IMG/VR virus record: IMGVR_UViG_2718218398_000011
Reading direction: 5' to 3' (one strand)
DNA length: 37,380 nt
Source: a virus
Lineage: Duplodnaviria > Heunggongvirae > Uroviricota > Caudoviricetes
Program-made: the position numbers and the translations under genes
The notes under the pieces: generated by a model
Databases searched by the model: none
Told to the model about the DNA's origin: nothing
Seen by the model: only the letters and a program-made list of their open reading frames with translations
Shown: positions 2,856 through 32,298 of the stretch, one piece after another
Layout: every line of letters begins with the position of its first letter
Position numbering within the stretch: position 1 is the first letter of the stretch

Positions 2856-3074
2856 TCAAAGAGAGAGCGCCACCTGTCCTGATTTCATTGGATGCGGCTG
2901 AACCGGATTTGACTCTTTTGGCGTTGCAATCGAACGAACAAAAGTTTCATGGGTAACAAAAGTATGGCTGCAGTTAATGTTCTGGCACTGGTTGTAACGC
3001 TCTTTGGTCAATGAAGATACCTGAAAACTGCTGCGAGTATGGGCGGCACTTCCACACAGTGGGCAAATCATCAT
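2856..3074 (-). CDS. ogr: Ogr/Delta zinc-finger late-gene activator
   Basis: CPLC...CQNINC C4 zinc finger; 72 aa from the ATG preceded by GGGAGA; resembles P2 Ogr. The track ORF starts further upstream at 3107. Confidence 0.85.
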   Translation of the reverse strand: MMICPLCGSAAHTRSSFQVSSLTKERYNQCQNINCSHTFVTHETFVRSIATPKESNPVQPHPMKSGQVALSL

Positions 3075-10144: not shown

Positions 10145-10717
10145 TCAGGGGGATTCATTGATCTTATTTGCCGGAAATTTTCTATAAATGGTAGAAACGC
10201 CTACATCAAAAATCAGTGCAATACGCTGTCTTGATTCTCCGGCCTCGAGTAAACGCCCAATCTGTGCCCACTGTTCGGTGGTCAACTTAGGACGGCGTCC
10301 ACCTACTCTGCCTTTGGCACGAGCTGCAGCCAGCCCTGCCCTGGTACGTTCAACTATCAGTTCGCGTTCCATTTCAGCCAGGGCACCCATGACATGAAAA
10401 AAGAAACGGCCCATTGGGGTACTGGTATCAATACTGTCAGTCAGGCTTCTGAAATTCACACCACGCTGGCGCAACTCTTCTATCAGCGTAACAAGATGCC
10501 GCATACTGCGCCCCAACCTGTCCAGCTTCCAGACAACCAGCGTGTCTCCTGCCGATAGTGTCCTGAGTAGTTTTTTCAGCCCCGGTCTGTCGGACTTAGT
10601 GCCACTGATTTTGTCCTCAAAAATCCGCTCACATCCCGCGCAGTTCAGTGCATTACGTTGCAAATCGGTGTTCTGGTCATTTGTTGACACGCGTACATAG
10701 CCAATAAGCATGATCAT
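10145..10717 (-). CDS. serine DNA invertase (Hin/Gin/Pin/Cin family)
   Basis: N-terminal GYVRVSTNDQ serine-recombinase motif and C-terminal HTH; 190 aa; adjacent to an inverted-repeat crossover site. Confidence 0.9.
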   Translation of the reverse strand: MIMLIGYVRVSTNDQNTDLQRNALNCAGCERIFEDKISGTKSDRPGLKKLLRTLSAGDTLVVWKLDRLGRSMRHLVTLIEELRQRGVNFRSLTDSIDTSTPMGRFFFHVMGALAEMERELIVERTRAGLAAARAKGRVGGRRPKLTTEQWAQIGRLLEAGESRQRIALIFDVGVSTIYRKFPANKINESP

Positions 10718-10766
10718 CCCCCTGAATAAAAACCGGAGATGATGCCAGTTAGCTGTTACCTCTGCA

Positions 10767-10794
10767 TTTTCTTAAACGTTGGTTTGGGAGAAGC
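10767..10794. repeat. inversion site, left (gix/hix-like)
   Basis: TTCTTAAACG-TT-GGTTTGGGAGAA; the inner half and core are the exact inverse of the site at 12623..12650. Confidence 0.6.
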
Positions 10795-11113
10795 GGCAAA
10801 ACGGAATGTGGGAACAGGGGAAAATCAGATACCTGATATGTCAGCTTATTCATCAGGATCTGGCTGGCAAAAATTGCCTGATGGTTCAATTGAACAGTGG
10901 GGAAGAATTAATTTCCCGAATAACGCCGCGGCGGTATCTACAAATGTGACTTTCACCATTCCTTTTACGCAGGAGCCAGACGTAGTGATTGTATATGACG
11001 GCGGTTTTGGTGGTGGGAATATGTGGGGCGCAACTAACTGGACGAAAACAGGTTTCGTTGCTCATTGTAACTATGGCTTTGAAGGTGGAGCCTTCTACGC
11101 GAAAGGGCGTTAA
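10781..11113 (+). CDS. alternative tail-fibre C-terminal exon (silent in this orientation)
   Basis: Open frame runs through the left site with the same GGT TTG GGA GAA (GLGE) codons as gene H at the right site; no independent start expected. Confidence 0.55.
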   Translation, partial: GLGEAAKRNVGTGENQIPDMSAYSSGSGWQKLPDGSIEQWGRINFPNNAAAVSTNVTFTIPFTQEPDVVIVYDGGFGGGNMWGATNWTKTGFVAHCNYGFEGGAFYAKGR

Positions 11114-11115
11114 TT

Positions 11116-11556
11116 ATGAAATATTTGTATGTTGATAATCTGGCGTACCCTTATGCCCTCCAGTCTGTTTACGCTGCAAAAGGCCAATGGCCCGAAGGTA
11201 AAGGCGTGGATATAGACGAAGCTATTTTCAGGGAATATTTCCATGATACGCCGCCTGACGGTAAGTACAGAATTACCGGAGACGATGGAATGCCAGCATG
11301 GGCAGATGTTCCACCGCCAACACGTGAAGAACAAATTGCATCAGCCGAAACTAAAAAGCAGCAATTGATTAATCAGGCCAACGATTATATGAACAGTAGA
11401 CAATGGGCTGGTAAAGCGGCTATTGGTCGTCTGAAAGGTGAGGAACTGGCGCAATATAATTTGTGGCTGGATTATCTGGACGCACTGGAGCTGGTCGATA
11501 CTTCCAGTGCACCAGATATTGAATGGCCTACTCCTCCGGCAGTTCAGGCCAGATGA
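11116..11556 (+). CDS. tail fibre assembly protein (alternative)
   Basis: 146 aa; C-terminus (WLDYLDAL...APDIEWP) resembles the Tfa on the opposite strand. Confidence 0.7.
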   Translation: MKYLYVDNLAYPYALQSVYAAKGQWPEGKGVDIDEAIFREYFHDTPPDGKYRITGDDGMPAWADVPPPTREEQIASAETKKQQLINQANDYMNSRQWAGKAAIGRLKGEELAQYNLWLDYLDALELVDTSSAPDIEWPTPPAVQAR

Positions 11557-12130
11557 CATCCGGCGCGGTGCTGATATCTGTTGCCGTCACCGCGTCAATG
11601 TAATCCAGCACAGCGTTAAGCCGGGTTGTTTCTGCCTGCGTCAGTTTCCGCCCGGCCTGTAATTTCAGTTGAATCAGACTAATGGAAGCCATTGCAGTAT
11701 CAATCAGTGACTGACGCTGTGCTTCTGCCGCGTCTACTGCGGCGCGATGCTGTGCCTCAGTATCGGTCACCCATTTCTCACCATCCCATTTATCGTATGG
11801 CGTTAATGGGGCGATAGTGGTTGTATTTTCGGGGTAATCACCCGGAGTTGTGATTTCTTTGGTGTCTCCCGTTTCGGTGTTATAGACGATTTCACCGCGA
11901 TGGTCTGGCACATATTCCCATGAGTTTAAATCTGCCGAACGGCAGATTGCATAACCAGCCTTATGTATACCAGGTTCATCCAGACAGGAATATGCCGGGA
12001 TACCAACACCAACGGCAAGATATTCATTTGAAGTGGAAATATATTCCCGAGTTTCACCATCATAGCTATAGACGGTAATATTCCCCGCCTTCGTGGCAAT
12101 AAGCTCGCTATTTAATACAGCGTTATCCAT
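11528..12130 (-). CDS. tail fibre assembly protein
   Basis: 200 aa, directly downstream of H; conserved Tfa C-terminus (LDYIDAV...APDVIWP). Confidence 0.8.
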   Translation of the reverse strand: MDNAVLNSELIATKAGNITVYSYDGETREYISTSNEYLAVGVGIPAYSCLDEPGIHKAGYAICRSADLNSWEYVPDHRGEIVYNTETGDTKEITTPGDYPENTTTIAPLTPYDKWDGEKWVTDTEAQHRAAVDAAEAQRQSLIDTAMASISLIQLKLQAGRKLTQAETTRLNAVLDYIDAVTATDISTAPDVIWPELPEE

Positions 12131-13686
12131 TATGCAGCTCTCACAATATAATTAAATGACGTATTACGTGGTCGTACTGATATCCATGCACTATAAAAAC
12201 CGTCTTCTGCTGTTCTCTGCGTTCCCGTAATGGAGTTATCAGACGAAGCTGGAACATAGTTACTGCTGTCGCCAGCTTTAGAATTAGCAGGTATCCCGCT
12301 TGTTTGTACTTTATCGGCGGAAGCAAATGCTATCCCCACCTTGACAGAGGTTGTTGTATCAACCCCGTAATAATCCTGTAACGCTGTACGAATAAAAGTT
12401 GCATCCTGACCACTGAGTAGTGATCGTCCACTGTCTACACCGCGTCCATCATCCCAGCCACGAATAAACTCACCGCGTAAATCAGGCAATTTATTTGTCG
12501 GGTAAGCCTTTGCCAGTTCCGGGTATTCTTCAGCAGAAAAAGCTGCACCATTGCATTTCAACCAGCCTGTCGGTGGTGTAGCTGAAGGCCACGGAACAGG
12601 CACACCAACCGGTAATGCTGAACCTTCTCCCAAACCAAGGTATGCGAGAAGACCAGCAACATCCTTTCCACTCAAATTAGTCAGCGTATTGTCCAGCGGT
12701 TGTTTACCTGCCAGTGCATTAAGCATTGTCGTGGCAAAGTTCGGGTCATTCCCCAGCGCCGCCGCCAGTTCGTTCAGTGTATCCAGTGCCGCAGGTGCAG
12801 AACCCACCATTGCCGCAATCGCCGATTTCACAAATGCCGTGGTGGCAATCTGTGTATTGTTGACCGACTGTGCCGCAGTCGGTGCGGTTGGCGTTCCGGT
12901 GAGTGCCGGACTCGACAGCGGCGCTTTCAGTGCCAGCGCATTGTTAATGGTGGTACTGAATTTCGGATCATTGTTAATGGCTACGGCTATTTCTTTCAGC
13001 GTGTCCAGCGTGGCTGGCGCATCATTAATAAGAGCCGTCAGTGCCGCCTGAACAAATGCGGTGGTCGCAACCTGCGTGGTGTTATTCCCCGTCGCTGGCG
13101 TTGGCGCTTTGGGTGTCCCGGTAAACGTAGGACTTTCTTTGGCTGCATACTGTGAATGCGGGTCCGGTGCGGCAAGATGTTTTGCCATCTGATCATCCGC
13201 GTACACCTTCAGCTCCAGTGCCTTGTCATCCACATACTTGCGGGTTGCCAGCACTACAGCAGGGTCGATTTTCAGGGTGATATTGTCCGTGCTGCTGGTA
13301 ATCAGCACCATGCGCACGGTCTGGGTACGCCCGCTGCCTTCAGCCAGTTGCGGCTTATAGCTTTCCGGGCAGTTGCCCACGGCAATCAATGCCCCTGACT
13401 CATCAAACAGGCCCACTTCACGTATCCACCAACCGCCCTCGTTTTCAGGGATCACCTGTTCAGCAATAATCTGGCTGCTGTTCTGTGGGTCGATATAGAG
13501 CATATTCAGCGCAGCCCGACGTTTCTCATTTACCAGTGCACTCTGCTTTGCGTCCGGCGTCGGCAATGTTCCGCCACCATCGCCCACCGCCATATGGGTA
13601 ATTTTTAGCGGCACACCGAGCGCGGCGGCGCTGGCAAGTTTCGCCGCGCCAATATCCGTCAGCAGGGTATAAAATTTTGTGCTCAT
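12130..13686 (-). CDS. H: tail fibre protein H (constant N-terminus plus currently fused variable C-terminus)
   Basis: 518 aa, P2 gpH-like N-terminus with repeat-rich shaft; the inversion site lies inside the codons for LGLGEG. Confidence 0.9.
   Translation of the reverse strand: MSTKFYTLLTDIGAAKLASAAALGVPLKITHMAVGDGGGTLPTPDAKQSALVNEKRRAALNMLYIDPQNSSQIIAEQVIPENEGGWWIREVGLFDESGALIAVGNCPESYKPQLAEGSGRTQTVRMVLITSSTDNITLKIDPAVVLATRKYVDDKALELKVYADDQMAKHLAAPDPHSQYAAKESPTFTGTPKAPTPATGNNTTQVATTAFVQAALTALINDAPATLDTLKEIAVAINNDPKFSTTINNALALKAPLSSPALTGTPTAPTAAQSVNNTQIATTAFVKSAIAAMVGSAPAALDTLNELAAALGNDPNFATTMLNALAGKQPLDNTLTNLSGKDVAGLLAYLGLGEGSALPVGVPVPWPSATPPTGWLKCNGAAFSAEEYPELAKAYPTNKLPDLRGEFIRGWDDGRGVDSGRSLLSGQDATFIRTALQDYYGVDTTTSVKVGIAFASADKVQTSGIPANSKAGDSSNYVPASSDNSITGTQRTAEDGFYSAWISVRPRNTSFNYIVRAA
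12623..12650. repeat. inversion site, right (gix/hix-like), inside gene H
   Basis: TTCTCCCAAACC-AA-GGTATGCGAGAA; the inner half is the reverse complement of the left site's inner half. Confidence 0.6.
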
Positions 13687-19423: not shown

Positions 19424-20074
19424 TCAGCGGCTGTCATTGCGCAGTCTGCGCTCCAGCTGCTGTTTGTCTTTTTTCACGCCACAGCGGGGATCGAGCTGTA
19501 ACGCATGGTTGAGATGATTAAGGGCGGACGCCGGATTGTTTTCACTCAGGACAGCGCCAATCGCTTTATGCAGACGCGCCCGTGACTGGTCCGGCATATC
19601 CATACCGTCTGTCAGCTCCAGCGTCTGCAGCAACAGATCGGCATCAAAGCCGGTGGCGGCAAGCATTGCGCTCTGGGCTGCATCTGCCATTTCCTCTGCC
19701 AGCACGGTCTGCACGTTGCGGTTACCCAGCGGCATCACCCAGCCATGACGCAGGGCATGACGCCCGATCTCCAGCGCCCCGGCATAATCTCCGGCATCAA
19801 TGCGCCACAGCATCACGTACATCAGCACGTCATCCTGTTGAGCGCCTCCGGCAGCCAGGACACCCTCTGCCCAGGCGGCGTACTTCGGCAGCAGCTCCAC
19901 CTTGATTTCCGCTTTTTTGACCGTGGACTGAACGCCCTTGAGACGGCGGCGGTCTTCCGCCAGTTGCAGCAGCATCAGGTCATAGCCCGACGCGTGGCGA
20001 ACACTGCCGCCCTCGCGGGCGGCCTGTTCAGCCTGAACGCGCAGGCGATGCTGCCGTGCGGGACTCAGGCTCAT
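19424..20074 (-). CDS. M: terminase endonuclease (small) subunit M
   Basis: 216 aa, P2 gpM-like. Confidence 0.85.
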   Translation of the reverse strand: MSLSPARQHRLRVQAEQAAREGGSVRHASGYDLMLLQLAEDRRRLKGVQSTVKKAEIKVELLPKYAAWAEGVLAAGGAQQDDVLMYVMLWRIDAGDYAGALEIGRHALRHGWVMPLGNRNVQTVLAEEMADAAQSAMLAATGFDADLLLQTLELTDGMDMPDQSRARLHKAIGAVLSENNPASALNHLNHALQLDPRCGVKKDKQQLERRLRNDSR

Positions 20075-22128: not shown

Positions 22129-23895
22129 ATGAACACCACACTGACACCCGCAGATCTCGATCCCCGTCGGCAGGCCATGCTGCTGTACTTTCAGGGATAC
22201 CGCGTCGCCCGCATTGCTGAAATGCTGGGCGAGAAAGTTGCAACCGTTCACAGCTGGAAAAAACGCGACAAGTGGGGTGACTATGGGCCGCTGGATCAGA
22301 TGCAGCTCACCACCGCCGCACGCTACTGCCAGCTCATTATGAAGGAGCACAAAGAAGGGAAAGATTTCAAAGAGATTGACCTGCTGGCGCGCCAGTCTGA
22401 GCGCCACGCGCGGATCGGCAAGTTTAACAATGGCGGCAACGAAGCTGACTTAAACCCTAACGTCGCCAACCGCAACAAAGGCCCGCGCCGTCAGCCGGAA
22501 AAGAATGTCTTCACCGATGAACAGATTGAGAAGCTGGAAGAAATCTTCCATTCCTCCATGTTCAACTACCAGCGCCACTGGTGGGAAGCCGGAAAAACCA
22601 ACCGCATCCGCAACCTGCTGAAGTCACGCCAGATCGGCGCGACCTTTTACTTTGCCCGTGAAGCCCTGATTGACGCCCTGCTTACCGGACGTAACCAGAT
22701 TTTCCTTTCCGCCAGTAAGGCACAGGCCCACGTCTTTAAGCAGTACATCATCGACTTCGCCAAAGAAGTGGATGTGGAACTGAAAGGCGATCCGATGGTG
22801 CTTCCTAACGGGGCCACGCTTTACTTCCTCGGCACCAATGCCCGCACGGCCCAGAGTTATCACGGCAACCTGTATCTGGATGAATATTTCTGGATACCGA
22901 AATTTCAGGAGCTACGCAAAGTGGCTTCCGGTATGGCTATTCACAAGAAATGGCGGCAGACCTATTTTTCCACACCATCCAGCCTGACCCACAGTGCTTA
23001 TCCGTTCTGGTCCGGTGCGCTGTTCAACCGTGGACGCAACAAAGCCGACAAGGTGGACATTGATCTGTCCCACAGCAATCTGGCCCCCGGCCTGCTGTGC
23101 GCTGACGGGCAATACCGCCAGATAGTCACCGTGGAAGATGCGGTGCGCGGTGGCTGTAACCTGTTCGACCTTGACCAGTTGCGCATGGAATACAGCCCGG
23201 ACGAATACCAGAACCTGCTGATGTGCGAGTTTGTGGACGATCTCGCGTCCGTGTTCCCGCTCAGCGAACTACAGGCGTGCATGGTGGACAGCTGGGAAGT
23301 CTGGACCGACTTTCATGCACTGGCGCTGCGCCCGTTTGGCTGGCGCGAAGTGTGGATCGGTTATGACCCGGCAAAAGGTACGCAGAACGGCGACAGCGCC
23401 GGATGCGTGGTGGTGGCACCGCCAGCCGTGCCGGGCGGTAAGTTCCGCATTCTTGAGCGTCACCAGTGGCGCGGGATGGACTTCCGCGCCCAGGCTGACG
23501 CCATCAAAAAACTGACTGAACAGTACAACGTGACATACATCGGTATCGACTCAACCGGCGTCGGTCACGGGGTTTACGAGAACGTGAAAGCGTTTTTTCC
23601 TGCCGTCCGGGAGTTTGTCTACAACCCCAACGTTAAAAATGCCCTGGTACTCAAGGCCTACGACATTATCAGTCACCGCCGTCTGGAGTTTGACGCCGGA
23701 CACACCGACATAGCGCAGTCATTTATGGCAATCCGTCGCGCCACCACCGCCAGCGGCAACCGCCCGACCTATGAAGCCAGCCGCAGCGAAGAAGCCAGCC
23801 ATGCCGATCTGGCGTGGGCAACAATGCACGCACTGTTTAACGAACCGCTGCAGGGCGAGTCCGCCAATACCAGCAATATTGTGGAGATTTTTTGA
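22129..23895 (+). CDS. P: terminase ATPase (large) subunit P
   Basis: 588 aa, P2 gpP-like. Confidence 0.9.
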   Translation: MNTTLTPADLDPRRQAMLLYFQGYRVARIAEMLGEKVATVHSWKKRDKWGDYGPLDQMQLTTAARYCQLIMKEHKEGKDFKEIDLLARQSERHARIGKFNNGGNEADLNPNVANRNKGPRRQPEKNVFTDEQIEKLEEIFHSSMFNYQRHWWEAGKTNRIRNLLKSRQIGATFYFAREALIDALLTGRNQIFLSASKAQAHVFKQYIIDFAKEVDVELKGDPMVLPNGATLYFLGTNARTAQSYHGNLYLDEYFWIPKFQELRKVASGMAIHKKWRQTYFSTPSSLTHSAYPFWSGALFNRGRNKADKVDIDLSHSNLAPGLLCADGQYRQIVTVEDAVRGGCNLFDLDQLRMEYSPDEYQNLLMCEFVDDLASVFPLSELQACMVDSWEVWTDFHALALRPFGWREVWIGYDPAKGTQNGDSAGCVVVAPPAVPGGKFRILERHQWRGMDFRAQADAIKKLTEQYNVTYIGIDSTGVGHGVYENVKAFFPAVREFVYNPNVKNALVLKAYDIISHRRLEFDAGHTDIAQSFMAIRRATTASGNRPTYEASRSEEASHADLAWATMHALFNEPLQGESANTSNIVEIF

Positions 23896-24923
23896 TGGGA
23901 AAGAGTAAGAAGAACCGCGCTGTGTCGACGAACCAGATTCAGCACAAAAGCCAGACTTCAGCCGAAGCATTCAGCTTTGGCGATCCCGTTCCTGTTCTGG
24001 ACCGCCGCGAACTGCTGGACTATGTAGAATGCGTACAGACAGATCGCTGGTATGAGCCGCCAGTGAGTTTTGACGGACTGGCGCGAACCTTCCGCGCTGC
24101 CGTGCATCACAGTTCACCAATTGCGGTGAAATGCAACATTCTGACCAGTACCTACATCCCTCACCCGCTTCTCAGCCAGCAGGCTTTTTCACGTTTTGTG
24201 CAGGACTATCTGGTATTTGGTAACGCTTACCTGGAGAAACGCACGAACCGGTTCGGTGAAGTTATCGCCCTTGAGCCTGCTCTGGCAAAATACACCCGAC
24301 GTGGGTTAGACCTGGATACCTACTGGTTTGTGCAATACGGTATGACAACCCAGCCGTATCAGTTCACGAAAGGCAGCATTTTTCATCTGATGGAGCCGGA
24401 CATCAACCAGGAGATCTACGGCCTGCCCGGCTATCTTTCTGCCATTCCATCCGCCCTGCTCAACGAGTCCGCCACGCTGTTCCGCCGTAAGTATTACATC
24501 AACGGCAGCCATGCAGGCTTCATCATGTACATGACCGACGCCGCGCAGAATCAGGAGGATGTGAACAACCTCCGCAACGCGATGAAAAGTGCCAAAGGTC
24601 CAGGCAACTTCCGCAACCTGTTTATGTACTCGCCTAACGGCAAAAAAGACGGGCTTCAGATCATCCCATTGTCAGAAGTCGCGGCGAAGGATGAATTTCT
24701 TAACATCAAGAACGTAAGTCGGGATGACATGATGGCGGCGCATCGTGTGCCGCCGCAGATGATGGGGATAATGCCAAACAATGTTGGGGGGTTTGGGGAT
24801 ATAGAAAAAGCCAGTTGCGTTTTTGTGCGAAATGAGTTAACTCCTTTACAAAAAAGACTTGTAGAAATTAATATTTGGCTAAAGAAAAAAATAATAGCCT
24901 TCAAAGATTATTCATTGAATTAG
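23892..24923 (+). CDS. Q: portal protein Q
   Basis: 343 aa, P2 gpQ-like; the last ~30 codons are AT-rich. Confidence 0.9.
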   Translation: MMGKSKKNRAVSTNQIQHKSQTSAEAFSFGDPVPVLDRRELLDYVECVQTDRWYEPPVSFDGLARTFRAAVHHSSPIAVKCNILTSTYIPHPLLSQQAFSRFVQDYLVFGNAYLEKRTNRFGEVIALEPALAKYTRRGLDLDTYWFVQYGMTTQPYQFTKGSIFHLMEPDINQEIYGLPGYLSAIPSALLNESATLFRRKYYINGSHAGFIMYMTDAAQNQEDVNNLRNAMKSAKGPGNFRNLFMYSPNGKKDGLQIIPLSEVAAKDEFLNIKNVSRDDMMAAHRVPPQMMGIMPNNVGGFGDIEKASCVFVRNELTPLQKRLVEINIWLKKKIIAFKDYSLN

Positions 24924-24957: not shown

Positions 24958-26610
24958 TTACAAATACCGTCTAACACGTATTTTATTAATGCTCGACTCA
25001 TTTCCAATTCTTATCAAAGCATTTCTCGCTTTTTCTCCGATGCGTTTCATTCTTTCTGAACCATTGCTATACCCACCAAACTTAAGAGCAGTAGCTATTA
25101 TTGAATCACCACCATCAAGAATGACTTTTTTAAATAAATCATAGTAGTCATCCTCTGAGGCAGCATCCAATATTTCCTCGTGCCTATCAGACCAACCATT
25201 CTGACTTGATAATTTTATTAGAACATCCTTTATAGAACCATCCAGATTTAAAGTAGTAGAATAATCTTGGATTTTTGACTTTAACTCAGCATCTTTTATA
25301 GGATGAACATTCATGTAAATAGATTGAACATATTCCTTAAGAGCATCATTGCCGTAATTAATAAATTTACTTATTAATTCACTTGCTTTAATATTTTCAC
25401 CTAAATCTCTATACAGTCCGACAACACTATCCAAGTCACTTGGAGTTACATACTCTATCCCACCAACCACCGCTTGATATAGATTATCAATAACCTGATT
25501 TCGGTTATCTTCAAATGAATTATAGAAAAGCTTCCATGCTTCAAACAGTGAACCTCGCTTACTATCACGGATAAGTTCATCATTCCTTAGACTTACTTGC
25601 CTTTGGAAATTGTTCATATCAATATATCCATGCCTTACCATGTCTATAAGGACTTCATCAAGTTCGTTTGTTTTTTTATAATCATATATAAGCAAAGTAT
25701 TAAGCCATTTTTTTTCTTTTCCATCCTCTTTTTCATCACGCATATAGATATTTCTCATATTTCTAATATACTCCAATGATGGTACATCTCCATCTGGAGT
25801 AAATGCGTAATGACTCCAACAATACAAAGTTAAGGAGTGTGCGACTTCATTTGCAATTTTTTCAAAATTAACGTTAATGCCAGGTAACAAGGCTAGCAAA
25901 AACCGCTCTATTTTTTTCAGTATCCTAATATTCTTAATACCCAGGGAAATGGAGTATTTGCTTAATAATTTATGAACATCAGAATTATTTTTATATGCTA
26001 TAACTGCACATTCTTCTGGAGTAGGATTATAGGTAATCTCTCTATCAATAACCTTTTCTTTATAAGTGGAGTAGTCATCCATACCACTTGTCCCGTTATT
26101 AAGTAAAAGAACCACCTTACAATTTTTTTGTTCTTTCAATAAAGAAACCAACCCTAAGACATCTTTCACTTCTAAATTTTTACCACGTCTTTCTAAGTCA
26201 TCTATGACTACAATAACATTAGTAATTGACATAAATGACATTGACTCAAGTGTCGTAGTGAAATTTTTCAAAAAAGGTGTATCTTTTAACACACGAGCGG
26301 TCTTTCTAGTGCAGGATTCAAGAAGCCCCTTTGCATTTTGTGTTGCTGTTTTTAAATTAGGTTTGTTTCCAATGAAATCTTTCGTAATTGTATTTTCAAA
26401 GATGGAGTATTTTAATGCGTCCAATGAATTAACACCAAAAAGAGAGACGTAACTATATCTATTAAATGCAATCTTATTTTTATTTTCCTTTAAGAAAGCA
26501 TTCCAAGTATAGGTTTTCCCAATCCCCCACTCACCCTGAATAGCCATTACCTCAGGTTCTGCAGATGAAATAAAGTCTGACAACTGTTCTTTAATATAGT
26601 CTAATGACAT
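24958..26610 (-). CDS. KAP-family P-loop NTPase (cargo; candidate anti-phage protein)
   Basis: Walker A GEWGIGKT and Walker B VVIDDLERR in KAP-type arrangement; start placed at MSLDYIKEQL, which has GGAGA six nt upstream (track ORF starts at 26640); strongly AT-rich. Confidence 0.7.
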   Translation of the reverse strand: MSLDYIKEQLSDFISSAEPEVMAIQGEWGIGKTYTWNAFLKENKNKIAFNRYSYVSLFGVNSLDALKYSIFENTITKDFIGNKPNLKTATQNAKGLLESCTRKTARVLKDTPFLKNFTTTLESMSFMSITNVIVVIDDLERRGKNLEVKDVLGLVSLLKEQKNCKVVLLLNNGTSGMDDYSTYKEKVIDREITYNPTPEECAVIAYKNNSDVHKLLSKYSISLGIKNIRILKKIERFLLALLPGINVNFEKIANEVAHSLTLYCWSHYAFTPDGDVPSLEYIRNMRNIYMRDEKEDGKEKKWLNTLLIYDYKKTNELDEVLIDMVRHGYIDMNNFQRQVSLRNDELIRDSKRGSLFEAWKLFYNSFEDNRNQVIDNLYQAVVGGIEYVTPSDLDSVVGLYRDLGENIKASELISKFINYGNDALKEYVQSIYMNVHPIKDAELKSKIQDYSTTLNLDGSIKDVLIKLSSQNGWSDRHEEILDAASEDDYYDLFKKVILDGGDSIIATALKFGGYSNGSERMKRIGEKARNALIRIGNESSINKIRVRRYL

Positions 26611-26670
26611 GTACATTCTCCGAGATAGATAGTCATCCATATTATAACCCGAGTACTATCAAAGTAATAA

Positions 26671-26696
26671 GCGCGCGCTCGTATCCCCGCCACGCC
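26671..26696 (-). other. candidate cos site (cohesive-end region)
   Basis: Minus strand reads GGCGTGGCGGGGATACGAG CGCGCGC, resembling the P2/186 cohesive end as I remember it (GGCG[A/T]GGCGGGGAAAGCA.. followed by GCGCGC); a G-rich block in an AT-rich island at the expected map position. Confidence 0.4.
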
Positions 26697-27039
26697 TGCC
26701 CGCTTTATGTAGTGGTTTTCATGCACCTGCACGACATAAGCAAAAGCACGCCAGTTCTGGCTGGCCTCAGCAAAAACGATCCTCTAACGATCATGCGATC
26801 TCATGCGTCATAGTCATGCACAGCCAAGGGAAGCGTAAATCCGTATCTGAATGACCGCTGAAAAGCTAATCATACGGGTTTACAAAGATGAAAGTCCGCT
26901 GTGAGCGAAAAGCGGATATTCCCATTGTTTTATCTTGATCTAGTAAAAACAATACCCCCTTTACAAACAAAAATAATGAGTTACTATTTTCAGCTCCTTT
27001 TAACCCAAAGGTTTATAATTAAAAAGGAATGGCATACCG

Positions 27040-27693
27040 ATGAGTAAATACAAACTTTTCGCACAGCTATCAAGATATTCACTTGAAGCGCAGATTGATG
27101 ATTTCGAAAAATATATCCTAGGAGCAGGCGGCCAAAACAGAGTTGACTTAGCGGAATTAAAAAAAGCATATGAAGATGAAAAAAAGAATGCTCCTGACGA
27201 TTATATTAATTACTTAGAAGACTATTATTCAGAGCAATATGATTTCTTAGTTAACATACAACCAAATATTTTTAATAAATCTGCTTTGGTATCTTTATAC
27301 TCATGCTTAGAGCACAACCTAAACGACTATTGCAATATATGTCAAAGGATTGTAAACACCAATATATCAGTAACCGATTTTAATGGTGATGGCATCCACA
27401 AAGCAAAAAGATATTTAACAAAATTAATGGATATAAACTTTGGCCTGTCACAAGAGTGGCAATTCATGACAGAGTTTAACAAAGTAAGGAATTGCATAGT
27501 TCATGCTAATGGAGACATTAAAAAAATGAGCACAGCTGTAGCCTTAAAAAATATCATTGATAAAACACCTACTCTTTCATTAAACAATGAAAATAATATA
27601 ATAATCTCCTTAAATTATTTAAAAGATACTATCACAAAAATTAGAAAACTCTTTCAATGGTTATATACACATCTGGATCAATCATCGAAATGA
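27040..27693 (+). CDS. hypothetical protein with HEPN-like RNxxxH motif (cargo; candidate abortive-infection RNase)
   Basis: 217 aa; EFNKVRNCIVHANG at residues about 146-158 fits the Rx4-6H HEPN signature; AAGGAA ribosome-binding site; AT-rich. Confidence 0.5.
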   Translation: MSKYKLFAQLSRYSLEAQIDDFEKYILGAGGQNRVDLAELKKAYEDEKKNAPDDYINYLEDYYSEQYDFLVNIQPNIFNKSALVSLYSCLEHNLNDYCNICQRIVNTNISVTDFNGDGIHKAKRYLTKLMDINFGLSQEWQFMTEFNKVRNCIVHANGDIKKMSTAVALKNIIDKTPTLSLNNENNIIISLNYLKDTITKIRKLFQWLYTHLDQSSK

Positions 27694-27793
27694 ATACGAT
27701 AACATCTCAGTTTGTTATTGGTCTATTTTTGAAAACAGCTATCGATGATATTAGTCTGTTCTTCGTCAATTAATATGCAATCCATTCATGACA

Positions 27794-27815
27794 CAGGGCT
27801 GCTGTTACAGCCCTG
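27794..27815. terminator. hairpin between the convergent HEPN-like and Abi_C-like genes
   Basis: cagggctg-ctgtta-cagccctg, a perfect 8-bp stem. Confidence 0.35.
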
Positions 27816-27942
27816 ACAACCTTAGACTTCAATCGATTCAGAGATCTCTAACGCATCATCACCCGTTGAACTCACAGCGATAAGTAGACGCTGGCGGCAA
27901 CACAGAAGTGTAGCGGGAATTTGAACCACATAATTTGGTTTG

Positions 27943-28809
27943 TTAGATGGCTTTGCTTCGATATTCAATTTCTAAAATCGCCTTTGTCATTGCCGCAATA
28001 GTTATAGCTTCTACCATAGTCAATTCAGGCTTGTTCAAGCTTCCGTGTCCAGCAGTAGGTAATTTGTTGCGTAAATCATAAATATCTTTAACAGCATCAA
28101 TAAGATTCTTAGGTAATTTTGACATTTTTTCGAACTGTTTAAAAAAACCACCCAATGACTCATTTGCCACATTCGGGTTTTGAGTGATTTCCTTAGCCAT
28201 AGTTTCTAAAATATTAGAGGCTGCGTGCAGTGCACCTGCCGGATCATTATTATCCAAGCAATTATTCATTCTATCTATTTGCTGAACGATATTTGGGTGC
28301 AATCTTTTTAAGTAATCACTAGCCAATTCTTCATTAAAATTTTTGACACTTTCAAAAACATCGCAATCTAAATAAAATTTAGGATTGACTGACATCCATG
28401 TATATTTCCAATCATTTTCTAAATTATCTTTTTCCGCAATACGCCTGCCAGTGTCCTGATCTATCTCATCAACATATTTACACATATAATCGGCGTAGTA
28501 GTGTAAATATCTAAATGATATTTCTGGGCAAAAATTACTAACTGATGCAAGGCCGCCATATTCTTTTGTAGTAACTGTAGGGACTTCTTCATCACATAAA
28601 GATGAGAAAGTGGTTCTTTCCCAAAATTCGCCCAACTCTTTTTCTTTCCTAGTTGCCATACCAGCTATCACATTGATGCTTGAGAGCAAAACTACACTCT
28701 GATAGTATCGAGGACATCTGTATGAACTAGCATATGGGCATATTGATGATGCTTTACGATTAATACGCTCTTTTTCCCACCAATTTTTATCAGGAATAAT
28801 TCTTTGCAT
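27943..28809 (-). CDS. hypothetical protein with Abi_C-like C-terminal domain (cargo; candidate abortive-infection protein)
   Basis: 288 aa; the C-terminal ~100 aa (ALHAASNILETMAKEI ... DLRNKLPTAGHGS ... ITIAAMTKAILE) resemble the Abi_C/HEPN-type domain as I recall it; AT-rich. Confidence 0.45.
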   Translation of the reverse strand: MQRIIPDKNWWEKERINRKASSICPYASSYRCPRYYQSVVLLSSINVIAGMATRKEKELGEFWERTTFSSLCDEEVPTVTTKEYGGLASVSNFCPEISFRYLHYYADYMCKYVDEIDQDTGRRIAEKDNLENDWKYTWMSVNPKFYLDCDVFESVKNFNEELASDYLKRLHPNIVQQIDRMNNCLDNNDPAGALHAASNILETMAKEITQNPNVANESLGGFFKQFEKMSKLPKNLIDAVKDIYDLRNKLPTAGHGSLNKPELTMVEAITIAAMTKAILEIEYRSKAI

Positions 28810-29297
28810 AATTTAGCTACTATCTCACGAGTGAATGAATGTTTAGCCTTCTGCACAGTTTATCAGTTCCGGCATGCCTACTGCTACCCCACTGATTCAA
28901 CTTCAAGTTATGAGTTAAAGCGATTCGGTTTCGCTAGATGACACACTAGTGTTAATTTATGGATAAAAATTTATCACTTAAAATTAACTAATGCCTGTTG
29001 CGACCAAAAGTGTGCTGGAATATTATTTTCGTCTGACCTATTATCAAGCTAATTATCCAAATTAGAGTTACTCTCATTCATCAGCAACAAATAAATACAC
29101 CTGTTCACTTTCTCAAAGTGTTCCTGTTTTATTTTTAAAGCAAACAACGCCGCCTATTCGTCCGAATGTACAACAAACATCAGGTTCTGACACAAAGTGG
29201 ACGATCACTTATCAAAATGACCGCCCACCTTACACCTCATTTCACTCGTTGCCCAAACTCCCCCCAACAGGATAAATCCTCTTGGGGGCAACGTTTC

Positions 29298-29531
29298 TTA
29301 ATGCAGCCAGCTGTCGTCTTCCCACACCTTCTGCATAATTTTCATCACTTGTTTTCTTTCTTCATCCAGTTGCAGTCCGGTCAGTTCCACACCGTTAGAG
29401 CTACCTTTACGGATACGAATTACCGTTTTTGGATACAGGGGGCGCAGATTGCGGTAAAGCTCGGATTCAAGGGCGTCCAGGGTAGACTGGCTAATCTTCT
29501 GCTCTTTATCGATCATTATTTCAATGCGCAT
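29298..29531 (-). CDS. DinI-family protein (Tum C-terminal-like; SOS-induced)
   Basis: 77 aa from MRIEIMIDKEQ...; DinI-like throughout (RIEI..., ...VWEDDSWL). The track ORF starts at 29603 and overlaps the upstream gene. Confidence 0.8.
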   Translation of the reverse strand: MRIEIMIDKEQKISQSTLDALESELYRNLRPLYPKTVIRIRKGSSNGVELTGLQLDEERKQVMKIMQKVWEDDSWLH

Positions 29532-29883: not shown

Positions 29884-32298
29884 TTAATACAGGTTCCGCC
29901 ACTTATCATCTTCCCACAAACGCTGGTTCCGATAGAAGATACGCAAGCCTGCTCCTGACGGAATACTGCCGCCGCGAAGGAGTAAATCGACCTCTTTCTC
30001 GCTACCATCAAATCCTCTGGACTTCAGCTCATAGACGAGCTGCAGTCGCTGATGGTATGTAATTCGCTGTTTGTAGTCTTTACGCCGTTTCGGTTTAACC
30101 AGGCGTAACCTTGCTGCCAGGTCCCGGCGCTCTTTTTTGCTCATACTGTGCAGGTAATCGTGCAACTCCTTGTCATCCATGCGGGTAATGTCCGTTCTGG
30201 TATCCCCATCAGCTGATTTGTCTTTCCCTTGTTGGTACAAATTTTCAGCAAGGGGACAGTTATTGCCACGAGTCCAAGGGGCGCAAGCGCCCTGGTCGGC
30301 TGCCGCCTCCTGAACGTCAACGGCTTTACGGACCATTTTCCACTTCACTGCATGAGTGCAGATCTTGCCCTCTGCAATGGGTGACCAGATGCCATAAATA
30401 CGAATACCGTGATCGCCATAGGCGGTCGGCTCTTCGTTGATTTCATAAGCGGTTCTGATGAGGTGATATTTACGGGGAACCAGTACGCCGCCCTGCTTCA
30501 TGATGTAGGTGGCAAAGCAACCAGCATCAGCTGCAGCCAGAATGGCATCAAGGCGCGGGTTATCCAGTACCGGCGCACCTGCTTTTTTGTCACCCTGTTG
30601 CCTTGCCGCCTGACCAGCCAGCAATCGCAGTTCACGGTAAGCCTGACGCCCCGGAATGCCAAAGAAGCGGAATTGCTGAACACGATGCAGAGACGCCCAG
30701 GCATTAACGTATTCAGCGTTATCACGCAGAGATTTACCCGTTTCCTTGCTGATCTCGCCAGCCAGACCACGCCCGTCAATGTTCTTACTGATGTATTTCG
30801 CGATGTAGCTTGTTGGTGTACCTTTGCGCGGGTTTATCAGCTCAGACTTAAAGCGTGGTCCTGTGTTATTACCCAGCTCCTCGCGGTCTTCACGAATGGC
30901 AAACTTACGCAACAAAGCAGTAATGGCGCGGCGATCTTTTTTGCGCATAAAACACAACAGGTGCCAGTGAACTGTACCGTCATGATGCGGCTCAGCCACC
31001 CGCACGCCATACCAGCGCAATCCGGCTTTGTACATCGCCTTACGAAATGCAGCAAACATGCCGACCAGATAATCACTGCTTTGTCTTACCGTCGCATTTG
31101 TCCAGGTCGGGTTGGGCCTGCCGTTATTTAGCGTGGAATGGAAACGTGACGGACAGGTGATGGTGTAGAAAACGGCGCAGTCACCGCGCATTTCCGCGAT
31201 AAGCTCCAGACCTTTAACACATGCCATCATCTCATTGCGGCGATGCGCCGGGTTGCTACTACTGGCGTTTACCACGTCCTCCATATCCAGCGTGTCGCCG
31301 TCTTCGTTCACCAGTTCATGAGAACGGAAAAACTCCAGCGACTTACGGCGCTGCTCACGTTTATGCATCACGGCTTCATAGCTGACATAGGGAGATGCTT
31401 TTTTGCTGACCAGGCAAACAGCACGCAACTGCTCTTCCCGCCATTCGCAACGCATCTTCCATAATTTCCGATACCACCAGTCGGCGCACAACATACGCGC
31501 CAGCGAACCCGGAATGAGTTCATAGGGTACGGGTTTACGGCGGTTTCTTTTCCGGCGGAGTTGCTCAAACGCAGGAGGGATGACATCCAGACGCAGGGTT
31601 TCCGCCGCCACCCTTTCCCATGTCTTGCGGATTTCTTCTGGCTTAACGTCATCGGTGGCATACAAATCACCACAAGCTGCATCAAGGCACATGCTCATAT
31701 GTGCGGCAACAAGGGTAGACAGGCGCTTCACCTGATCCTGACTCATTTCAGGCAAGATCAGCAGGCCGTCCAGCCCTTCATGGCTTGCCATAAAACGAAA
31801 AGATGCAGATAGCTGGCTGTCGCGTACATGCTCTAGTCGTTCCAGACATGGTTTAATCGTCTCACGCAAATAGCGGGAATAAGCCTTTGGCCTGCCCAGG
31901 CTGCTGAAGTATTCAATACGTTGCATCAGCGGCTTGCTGATATGGGAAGGCTGGGCGTTAACGTCCGCCAGTATGACCATGTCCGGATTAAAACGCTGCT
32001 GCTCATGCACCAGCTTTGCCCGGCTAATGAGCTTATCCTGCTCCATTTCGCGCTGGACAGGATCACGGGATTCATTAAAGAAATAACGCTCCCAGACCTG
32101 ATCACTCAGTGCCTCGCGGCGCAGTTGTTCCTGCTTGTTATCGGCAGCGTACAGAGTGATCAGGTTTGAAAGCGCAGAAACCGGCGCAACTTCCGCCGGG
32201 TCCAGATAAGGGTTAATCGCCTTTTTCGGGCTGTTCCATGAGAATGCTGCGGCGGCCTCGTTAAAGCCGCTGCAGTTGTTCATATCAGCATGTCTCAT
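29884..32298 (-). CDS. A: replication initiation protein A (rolling-circle HUH endonuclease)
   Basis: 804 aa; HUH motif [11 protein letters not shown] and catalytic-Tyr motif [12 protein letters not shown], as in P2 gpA. Confidence 0.9.

Follow-up and report, generated by a model that had tools for sequence, protein, structure and literature searches.

Phage P2 packages its DNA from monomeric circles, as the classical literature describes. The cos site of phage lambda consists of a nicking site that yields 5' cohesive ends, with a flanking repeat array on one side. Among the P2-type phages, the cohesive end of P2 (cosL) is annotated in GenBank as GGCGAGGCGGGGAAAGCAC followed by TGCGCGC, and the cos site of 186 is annotated as GGCGTGGCGGGGAAAGCAT followed by TGCGCGC. 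A 55-bp cos core of the P2 family was defined by Ziermann & Calendar 1990, as cited in the cos passages of PMC5694545 and PMC3931495. The region between the replication gene and the portal gene is presented by Rousset et al. 2022 (PMC9122126), in the part of that paper concerned with it, as a cos-adjacent anti-phage hotspot, the gpA-gpQ region, with 1,650 arrangements in E. coli; the corresponding part of a 2026 NAR paper (PMC13586616) confirms the gpA-gpQ hotspot at a larger scale. The slot between cosL and gpQ is also described as an insertion hotspot of P2-like phages in a passage of PMC5694545 that cites Dodd & Egan 1996 and Nakayama 1999.

In this study, a candidate cos site was investigated in a 37,380-nt stretch of DNA from IMG/VR virus record IMGVR_UViG_2718218398_000011, hereafter the window. 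The 26-mer at 26671-26696 reads gcgcgcgctcgtatccccgccacgcc on the plus strand, and the minus strand gives GGCGTGGCGGGGATACGAG and then CGCGCGC. This agrees letter for letter with the original prediction, which had proposed it as a cos site lying in the middle of an island of cargo genes. The block at 26671-26696 is very probably the cos site of an intact P2/186/Fels-2-type (Peduoviridae) E. coli prophage. The data show sequence identity and homology, sharply bounded conservation, packaging genes of the matching type, a prophage that seems intact, and cargo that assorts independently in two slots. The elements of the site itself are as follows.

26678-26696, minus strand: 19-nt cohesive-end sequence GGCGTGGCGGGGATACGAG, the equivalent of cosN, matched to P2, 186, Fels-2, SopEPhi, MLG42 and SEN8
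26671-26677, minus strand: CGCGCGC flank, the final conserved bases on the portal side, where homology with every relative ends
26671-26725, minus strand: 55-bp P2-family cos core (TGCATGAAAACC...GGCG...GCGCGC, from TGCAT to GCGCGC), found by ungapped alignment

The 19-mer of the window is identical to the P2 and P4 sequences at 14/19 positions each and to that of 186 at 15/19, with an identical GCGCGC flank; P4 starts with GGCGAGGCGGGGAAAGCAC followed by CGCGCGC. Cohesive ends of the family have the form GGCG(A/T)GGCGGGGA plus 6 nt, and their invariant left part, GGCG(A/T)GGCGGGGA, is matched at 13 of 13 positions when the known A/T position is allowed. Over the 55-bp core, ungapped identity is 44/55 with 186, 42/55 with P2 and 43/55 with P4 (76-80%), and the core boundaries coincide. 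The P2/186 sequences from which the original prediction had drawn its comparison were nearly correct, and an alignment to P2 and 186 cos, which it had named as a check, succeeds and extends over the 55-bp core and a longer block of 150 bp. Besides the GGCG(A/T)GGCGGGGA part and the GCGCGC flank, the window shares with P2, 186 and P4 an upstream core of the form TGCAT...AAAACC...AAGCGGGC and upstream GCAT repeats; with P2 and 186, it also shares the position of cos beside portal gene Q and orthologous terminase genes gpM and gpP. It differs in the end of the overhang, which is ATACGAG in the window but AAAGCAC or AAAGCAT in P2, 186 and P4. A second difference lies in the layout: in P2 and 186, cos and Q are separated by only about 170 bp with a terminator, and the cargo lies wholly on the gpA side, whereas 1.75 kb of cargo lies between cos and Q in the window.

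The closest relatives are the Fels-2-like phages (Felsduovirus: Fels-2, SopEPhi, SEN8 and RE2010) together with related P2-like phages of Klebsiella, Yersinia and E. coli, which have the same 19-mer and CGCGCGC flank, a 150-bp block 85-93% identical to that of the window, and cargo in both flanking intervals (Q to cos, and cos to dinI/A); they differ from the window in cargo alone. The 19-mer is matched at 19/19 positions in Fels-2, SopEPhi and Yersinia phage MLG42. In Salmonella phage SEN8, whose genome is virion-derived, bases 1-19 are this same 19-mer and bear the annotation 'putative cos site'; the SEN8 genome announcement also quotes the sequence as cos (PMC5427200). The cos of Stenotrophomonas phage Smp131 is an 18/19 variant of the window 19-mer (PMC3931495). 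No experimentally mapped ends for the ATACGAG variant were found in the literature, and the cos sites of SEN8 and Smp131 were assigned by analogy. The exact 26-mer is present in 38 species-representative genomes, mostly of Enterobacterales whose 8-kb locus contains P2-like Q or A genes, and is identical in about 70 close relatives.

A G+C-rich string arising by chance in an A+T-rich island was also considered. The 26-mer has 81% G+C, the maximum among the 26-nt stretches of the island, whose mean is 35%, and it overlaps the most G-rich minus-strand 26-nt stretch of the island (26678-26703); the claim that it was the only G-rich block there was therefore essentially right. A second locally G+C-rich element of the island, a hairpin at 26746-26771, is part of the same conserved cos block. 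Some support for a chance origin comes from the 13-nt left half alone, which gave 5 matches with 2 mismatches against 1.7 expected. In contrast, the family-consensus pattern GGCGWGGCGGGGANANNNNNGCGCGC, searched with up to 2 mismatches, has one match in the window, at 26671-26696, and none in 100 dinucleotide-preserving shuffles of the window. Chance is excluded because of these shuffles, the 150-bp flanking homology to 89 phage records, and the column conservation described below. The sole match in the window lies between portal gene Q (end at 24923) and replication gene A (end at 29884), with cos at 26678-26696, the location known from P2, 186, Fels-2 and SEN8.

The window is a segment of an E. 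coli chromosome. Positions 1 to about 2780 are host flank (grxA, ybjM, ybjL and the sRNA RybB), and the rest is a P2/186-type prophage. The rybB gene lies in 2700-2778 on the plus strand (Rfam RF00110, 105 bits), and the prophage starts just past it with ogr (2856-3074, minus strand); because the prophage begins directly after rybB, its attachment site is probably at or beside the 3' end of that gene. Related prophages occupy the same rybB site in other E. coli. The genes required for use of a cos site are listed here with the markers that bound its surroundings.

19424-20074, minus strand: gpM, terminase small/endonuclease subunit (phrog_74, E=1.4e-88; 49% identical to P2 gpM)
22129-23895, plus strand: gpP, terminase large (ATPase) subunit (Pfam Terminase_6N, Terminase_6C and Terminase_5; 64% identity to P2 gpP)
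23892-24923, plus strand: gpQ, portal protein (Pfam Phage_portal; 62% identity to P2 gpQ)
29298-29531, minus strand: DinI-like gene, the conserved backbone boundary of the gpA-side slot (100% identical to Fels-2 DinI; annotated in relatives)
29884-32298, minus strand: gpA replication endonuclease, the outer marker of the gpA-gpQ hotspot (Pfam Phage_GPA, E=3.6e-127)

A gene of 62 aa lies between the DinI-like gene (29298-29531) and gpA. The element also has CI and CII and is of the 186/Fels-2 kind. With gpM, gpP, gpQ, gpA and DinI present, the element has the full set needed to use cos. Completeness was assessed with 44 reference genes from a prophage that occupies the same site in strain Ecol_542 and is annotated by PGAP. 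For 39 genes, the alignment in the window covers essentially the whole length, with 84-100% identity and P2 gene order, and no frameshift was seen in the int to ogr backbone. The remaining genes are of two kinds: the alternative tail-fibre segments H (a partial match) and G2 and H2 (weak), and cargo specific to the reference and absent from the window (DUF262, a HEPN-like nuclease and one hypothetical gene). In the Ecol_542 sister prophage, the DUF262 gene and the HEPN-like nuclease gene, a GmrSD-like pair, occupy the portal-side slot (L213, 11424-13684). The sister prophage also has an additional gene between S and V that is missing in the window, which illustrates cargo turnover at several slots. 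At 10148-12639, the window carries a site-specific invertase (10148-10711, minus strand) that is 99% identical to an annotated 'recombinase family protein', and beside it alternative tail-fibre and tail-fibre-assembly ORFs on opposite strands, 42-84% identical to those of the relative; this looks like an invertible host-range segment.

These data bear on whether the site is in use. It might be a genuine cos by descent that has become a silent relic, never cut in a prophage that is defective or non-inducible. Degraded relatives are indeed frequent in E. coli, such as PEC422, whose portal gene has an internal stop, and the remnant in PSJ-29, and the hairpin of the cos block in the window has two mismatches relative to most relatives. 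The int-ogr backbone, however, is essentially full length at the identities given above and without a visible frameshift, the 55-bp core is intact, and the 26-mer is the one shared with the close relatives. A silent relic is therefore regarded as improbable, and the reading of the block as the cos site of an intact prophage, which is predicted to be inducible, is preferred.

The extent of the site was delimited with 80 IMG/VR loci, selected for a portal protein with at least 93% identity to that of the window. The loci were anchored on the 19-mer, and column conservation was scored without gaps across the 66 distinct sequences. Counted from the first G of the cohesive end, conservation is almost complete between -124 and +26 and falls to background within a few bases at both edges. 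These abrupt edges indicate that the unit kept by selection is 26671-26820. It contains the elements listed below.

26671-26820, minus strand: complete 150-bp conserved cos block as defined by column conservation, spanning -124 to +26 in the numbering above
26791-26819, minus strand: three direct GCATGA repeats (26814-26819, 26801-26806 and 26791-26796), candidate gpM recognition repeats
26750-26765, minus strand: hairpin followed by a T-run, terminator-like, assessed by comparison of fold energies

From the 19-mer, the block extends for 124 bp towards gpA but for only 7 bp towards the portal gene, and its G+C content is 55% against 35% for the island. Its portal-side edge is also the start coordinate, 26671, of the original prediction. 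When the surrounding 700 bp were compared with phage genomes by BLAST, matches were confined to window positions 26668-26821; they came from 80 P2-like phages of Klebsiella, Yersinia, Escherichia and Salmonella, with 80-95% identity (88-93% among the matches listed). A BLAST search with the block alone found 89 phage records, most of them 85-93% identical.

A fourth GCATGA is located at 26719-26724, and the four repeats start at -123, -110, -100 and -28. Four copies of GCATG within 150 nt were found in none of 20000 shuffles, and this is the sole such cluster in the window. The GCAT units align among the window, P2, 186 and P4. The GCATGA repeats are therefore candidate recognition repeats for the terminase subunit gpM. 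TGCAT was also tried as the repeat unit and rejected: it occurs only twice on the strand and comparable windows are common elsewhere, so that GCATG(A) is the significant repeat. By analogy, the arrangement resembles lambda cos (cosQ-cosN-cosB), in which a nicking site gives 5' cohesive ends; the asymmetric, one-sided repeats could bind the small terminase. The two sites, however, have no sequence relationship, and the overhang is 12 nt in lambda against 19 nt in the window.

The hairpin is a perfect stem of 9-11 bp with about -20 kcal/mol in most of 232 related copies. In the window and five others, it contains two mismatches, and the window sequence folds with -10.2 kcal/mol. P4 and 186 have a G+C-rich inverted repeat of different bases at the same position, and P2 has none. 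The hairpin may act as a terminator of transcription from the gpA side; if so, part of the block need not be conserved for packaging. This raises the question of whether the block could be mainly transcriptional, as a terminator of the dinI/cargo operon or as promoters of the cargo, with the resemblance to cos incidental to its present role. Both the terminator-like hairpin with its T-run, strong in most relatives, and the transcription of both cargo cassettes away from the block fit such a role. The hairpin, however, comprises fewer than 30 of the 150 conserved bases, so that transcription would explain the hairpin at most, and a promoter scan around cos found no more sites than shuffles give. 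Moreover, invariance is highest in the 19-mer and its flanks, which are also shared by P4, a satellite that has no other region in common with P2 as described in the relevant passage of PMC9122126. A mainly transcriptional block is thus very unlikely, and the block is taken as a packaging site. A scan of the window against Rfam detected no RNA family in the cos block, the sole match being RybB in the host flank. A plausible promoter lies at 26960-26987, upstream of a 217-aa gene. A 69-aa ORF across cos (26604-26813, plus strand) has no family match and was taken as spurious, probably an annotation artefact; its equivalents appear as 'hypothetical protein' or pseudogene in some records (MLG42 and Ecol_542).

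Three genes make up the cargo around cos in the window.

24958-26610, minus strand: portal-side cargo, a KAP-type P-loop NTPase (Pfam KAP_NTPase, 34.9 bits with a cut-off of 20)
27040-27693, plus strand: gpA-side cargo gene 1, 217 aa (weak RTasHEPN match, E=1.1e-5 over 43 residues)
27943-28809, minus strand: gpA-side cargo gene 2, 288 aa (Abi_C, 18.8 bits, below the cut-off of 24)

The KAP NTPase also matches the PADLOC candidate system PDC-S49 (E=2.2e-25) and phrog_4740 (E=7.7e-145, aligned from residue 11). Its longest ORF starts at 26640, and a GGAGA motif precedes an ATG at 26610; the latter is probably the start, because the PGAP homologue has 550 aa. No Pfam or NCBIfam family was found for the 217-aa gene, and no NCBIfam or PHROG family for the 288-aa gene. 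For the labels 'HEPN-like' and 'Abi_C-like' of the original prediction, the matches are weak and sub-threshold. The 217-aa and 288-aa genes occur together in every E. coli genome among the matches listed (at least 8, at 99-99.9% identity; 27040-28809 in the window; L215, 3871-5640), where both are annotated by PGAP as 'hypothetical', and may form an uncharacterised two-gene cassette. Since transcription of both the KAP gene and the 217-aa gene leads away from cos, a cut at cos interrupts no gene. Among 81 sequences (the window and 80 close relatives), the KAP gene is present in 5, and the pair is present only in the window and a near-identical IMG/VR copy.

The two sides of cos were surveyed in 74 cos-containing sequences, namely the window and close relatives, with the gpA-side figures taken from 72. 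The gap from Q to cos varies from 174 to 3515 bp and is under 250 bp, too short for cargo, in one sequence, so that the portal-side slot is filled in 73/74 loci. The gap from cos to dinI varies from 78 to 4382 bp, and cargo is absent in 20/72. Taken together, the filled portal-side slots and the frequently empty gpA-side slots mean that natural variation maps the minimal cos as -124 to +26. The 72 loci, all with portals of at least 93% identity, contain 46 cargo types on the portal side and 24 on the gpA side, in 62 combinations. Gene content between gpA and gpQ therefore varies among near-identical phages, which is the mark of the gpA-gpQ hotspot. Fels-2, SopEPhi, SEN8 and phage 500465-1 also have genes on both sides of cos. 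Judging from the sequences compared, it is normal in the Fels-2-like lineage for cos to lie amid the cargo genes.

The complete island was found in none of 5426 complete E. coli genomes. At least 8 E. coli genomes share window positions 26670-29350 at 99-99.9% identity, including the cos block, both gpA-side genes and dinI, and have different portal-side cargo; their alignments start at 26670 or 26672. In the one such genome inspected, PEC422, the portal-side slot contains an LPO_1073/Vpar_1526 family protein and a small hypothetical gene. Other E. coli genomes have the KAP gene, cos and dinI in common with the window and lack the 217-aa/288-aa pair; PSJ-29, the one inspected, has a different gpA-side gene. 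The breakpoint of exchange in E. coli, at 26670/26672, is exactly the portal-side edge of the block. Independent assortment and a breakpoint at this edge indicate that the cos block is a fixed point between two independently exchanging slots.

As far as the published gpA-gpQ and cosL-gpQ hotspots are described in the parts of those papers that treat them, the window resembles them in having hypervariable, A+T-rich cargo of a putative defence type beside cos, bounded by gpA and gpQ. Those parts present gpA-gpQ as a single hotspot, whereas in the lineage of the window cos splits it into two slots that assort independently. The lineage also differs from P2 and 186 in that its portal-side slot is nearly always filled, while theirs is empty.

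A packaging pathway can be proposed for the prophage. After induction and gpA-driven replication, terminase (gpM and gpP) would recognise 26671-26820 on replicated circular DNA and would nick 19 nt apart on either side of GGCGTGGCGGGGATACGAG. Because P2 and 186 have a different sequence in the final six bases of the overhang, the exact cut positions are assumed; the predicted nicks lie between 26697 and 26696 on the minus strand and between 26677 and 26678 on the plus strand. The DNA would then be threaded through the gpQ portal, and a genome of about 34.7 kb would be packaged as a virion chromosome with 5'-protruding cohesive ends of 19 nt, the 5' polarity being predicted by analogy. The left end would run from 26696 into the KAP gene, whose start is 86 nt from the left terminus, and then into Q and P. 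The right end would carry the 288-aa and 217-aa genes, followed by the 124-bp arm of cos. The placement of the KAP gene at one physical end of the virion DNA and of the other two genes at the opposite end, as originally predicted, would thus follow from the cos assignment. After injection, the ends would anneal and restore the intergenic region between two divergent cargo cassettes. Because only the cos block is constrained, the DNA on both sides is free to vary, and such variation would give rise to the two independently exchanging slots, from Q to cos and from cos to dinI.

The distribution of the exact 26-mer was also examined with regard to satellites. None of 120 IMG/VR loci with the 26-mer had P4 genes, and 114/120 were P2-like. 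The possibility that the window itself carries the cos of a P4-like satellite (with psu/delta/sid and alpha and without structural genes) was ruled out by its full P2-type set of head, tail and lysis genes. Among the species-representative genomes, one possible satellite case was found, in the betaproteobacterial genus Chitinimonas, where Chitinimonas sp. BJB300 has 5-6 copies of the exact 26-mer and C. taiwanensis has 3. At one of these loci (L249), a DUF4062 protein and an OLD-like AAA_21/AAA_15 ATPase are encoded on one side of the 26-mer, and a Sid/Psu-like ORF (phrog_6165) and a P4-type integrase on the other. The Chitinimonas loci may represent a P4-like satellite family that uses the same cos variant far outside Enterobacterales. 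A 4.5-kb contig, JAEYLX010000057.1, from a MAG named 'Bacillota bacterium', contains the exact cos with a portal 94.6% identical and a DinI 100% identical to those of the window; it is almost certainly a mis-binned enterobacterial prophage fragment.

In sum, the cos site, its family and its cargo-rich surroundings are already published, and the window contains a known kind of element in its usual place; the island corresponds to the hotspot beside cos that is well known from P2-like phages, and the current understanding of P2-family packaging is unchanged. The additions are modest: base-precise limits of the block (-124 to +26), a portal-side slot that is nearly always occupied in Fels-2-like phages, and direct evidence for independent assortment, with one breakpoint exactly at the portal-side edge of the block. 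The sharp conservation boundaries serve as a natural deletion map of the minimal cos for the Fels-2-like lineage. The location of cos fixes the virion map of the prophage and divides its cargo into two cassettes acquired separately, one with the KAP gene and one with the 217-aa/288-aa pair, which matters for judging which cargo genes might work together. It is suggested, tentatively, that the cos block also serves as a constant stretch of homology, an anchor dividing the defence hotspot into two slots that recombine independently, and that the terminal position of the cassettes might favour their exchange via recombinogenic ends or cos-sharing satellites. If this is true, every virion would carry defence cassettes at both physical termini of its DNA.
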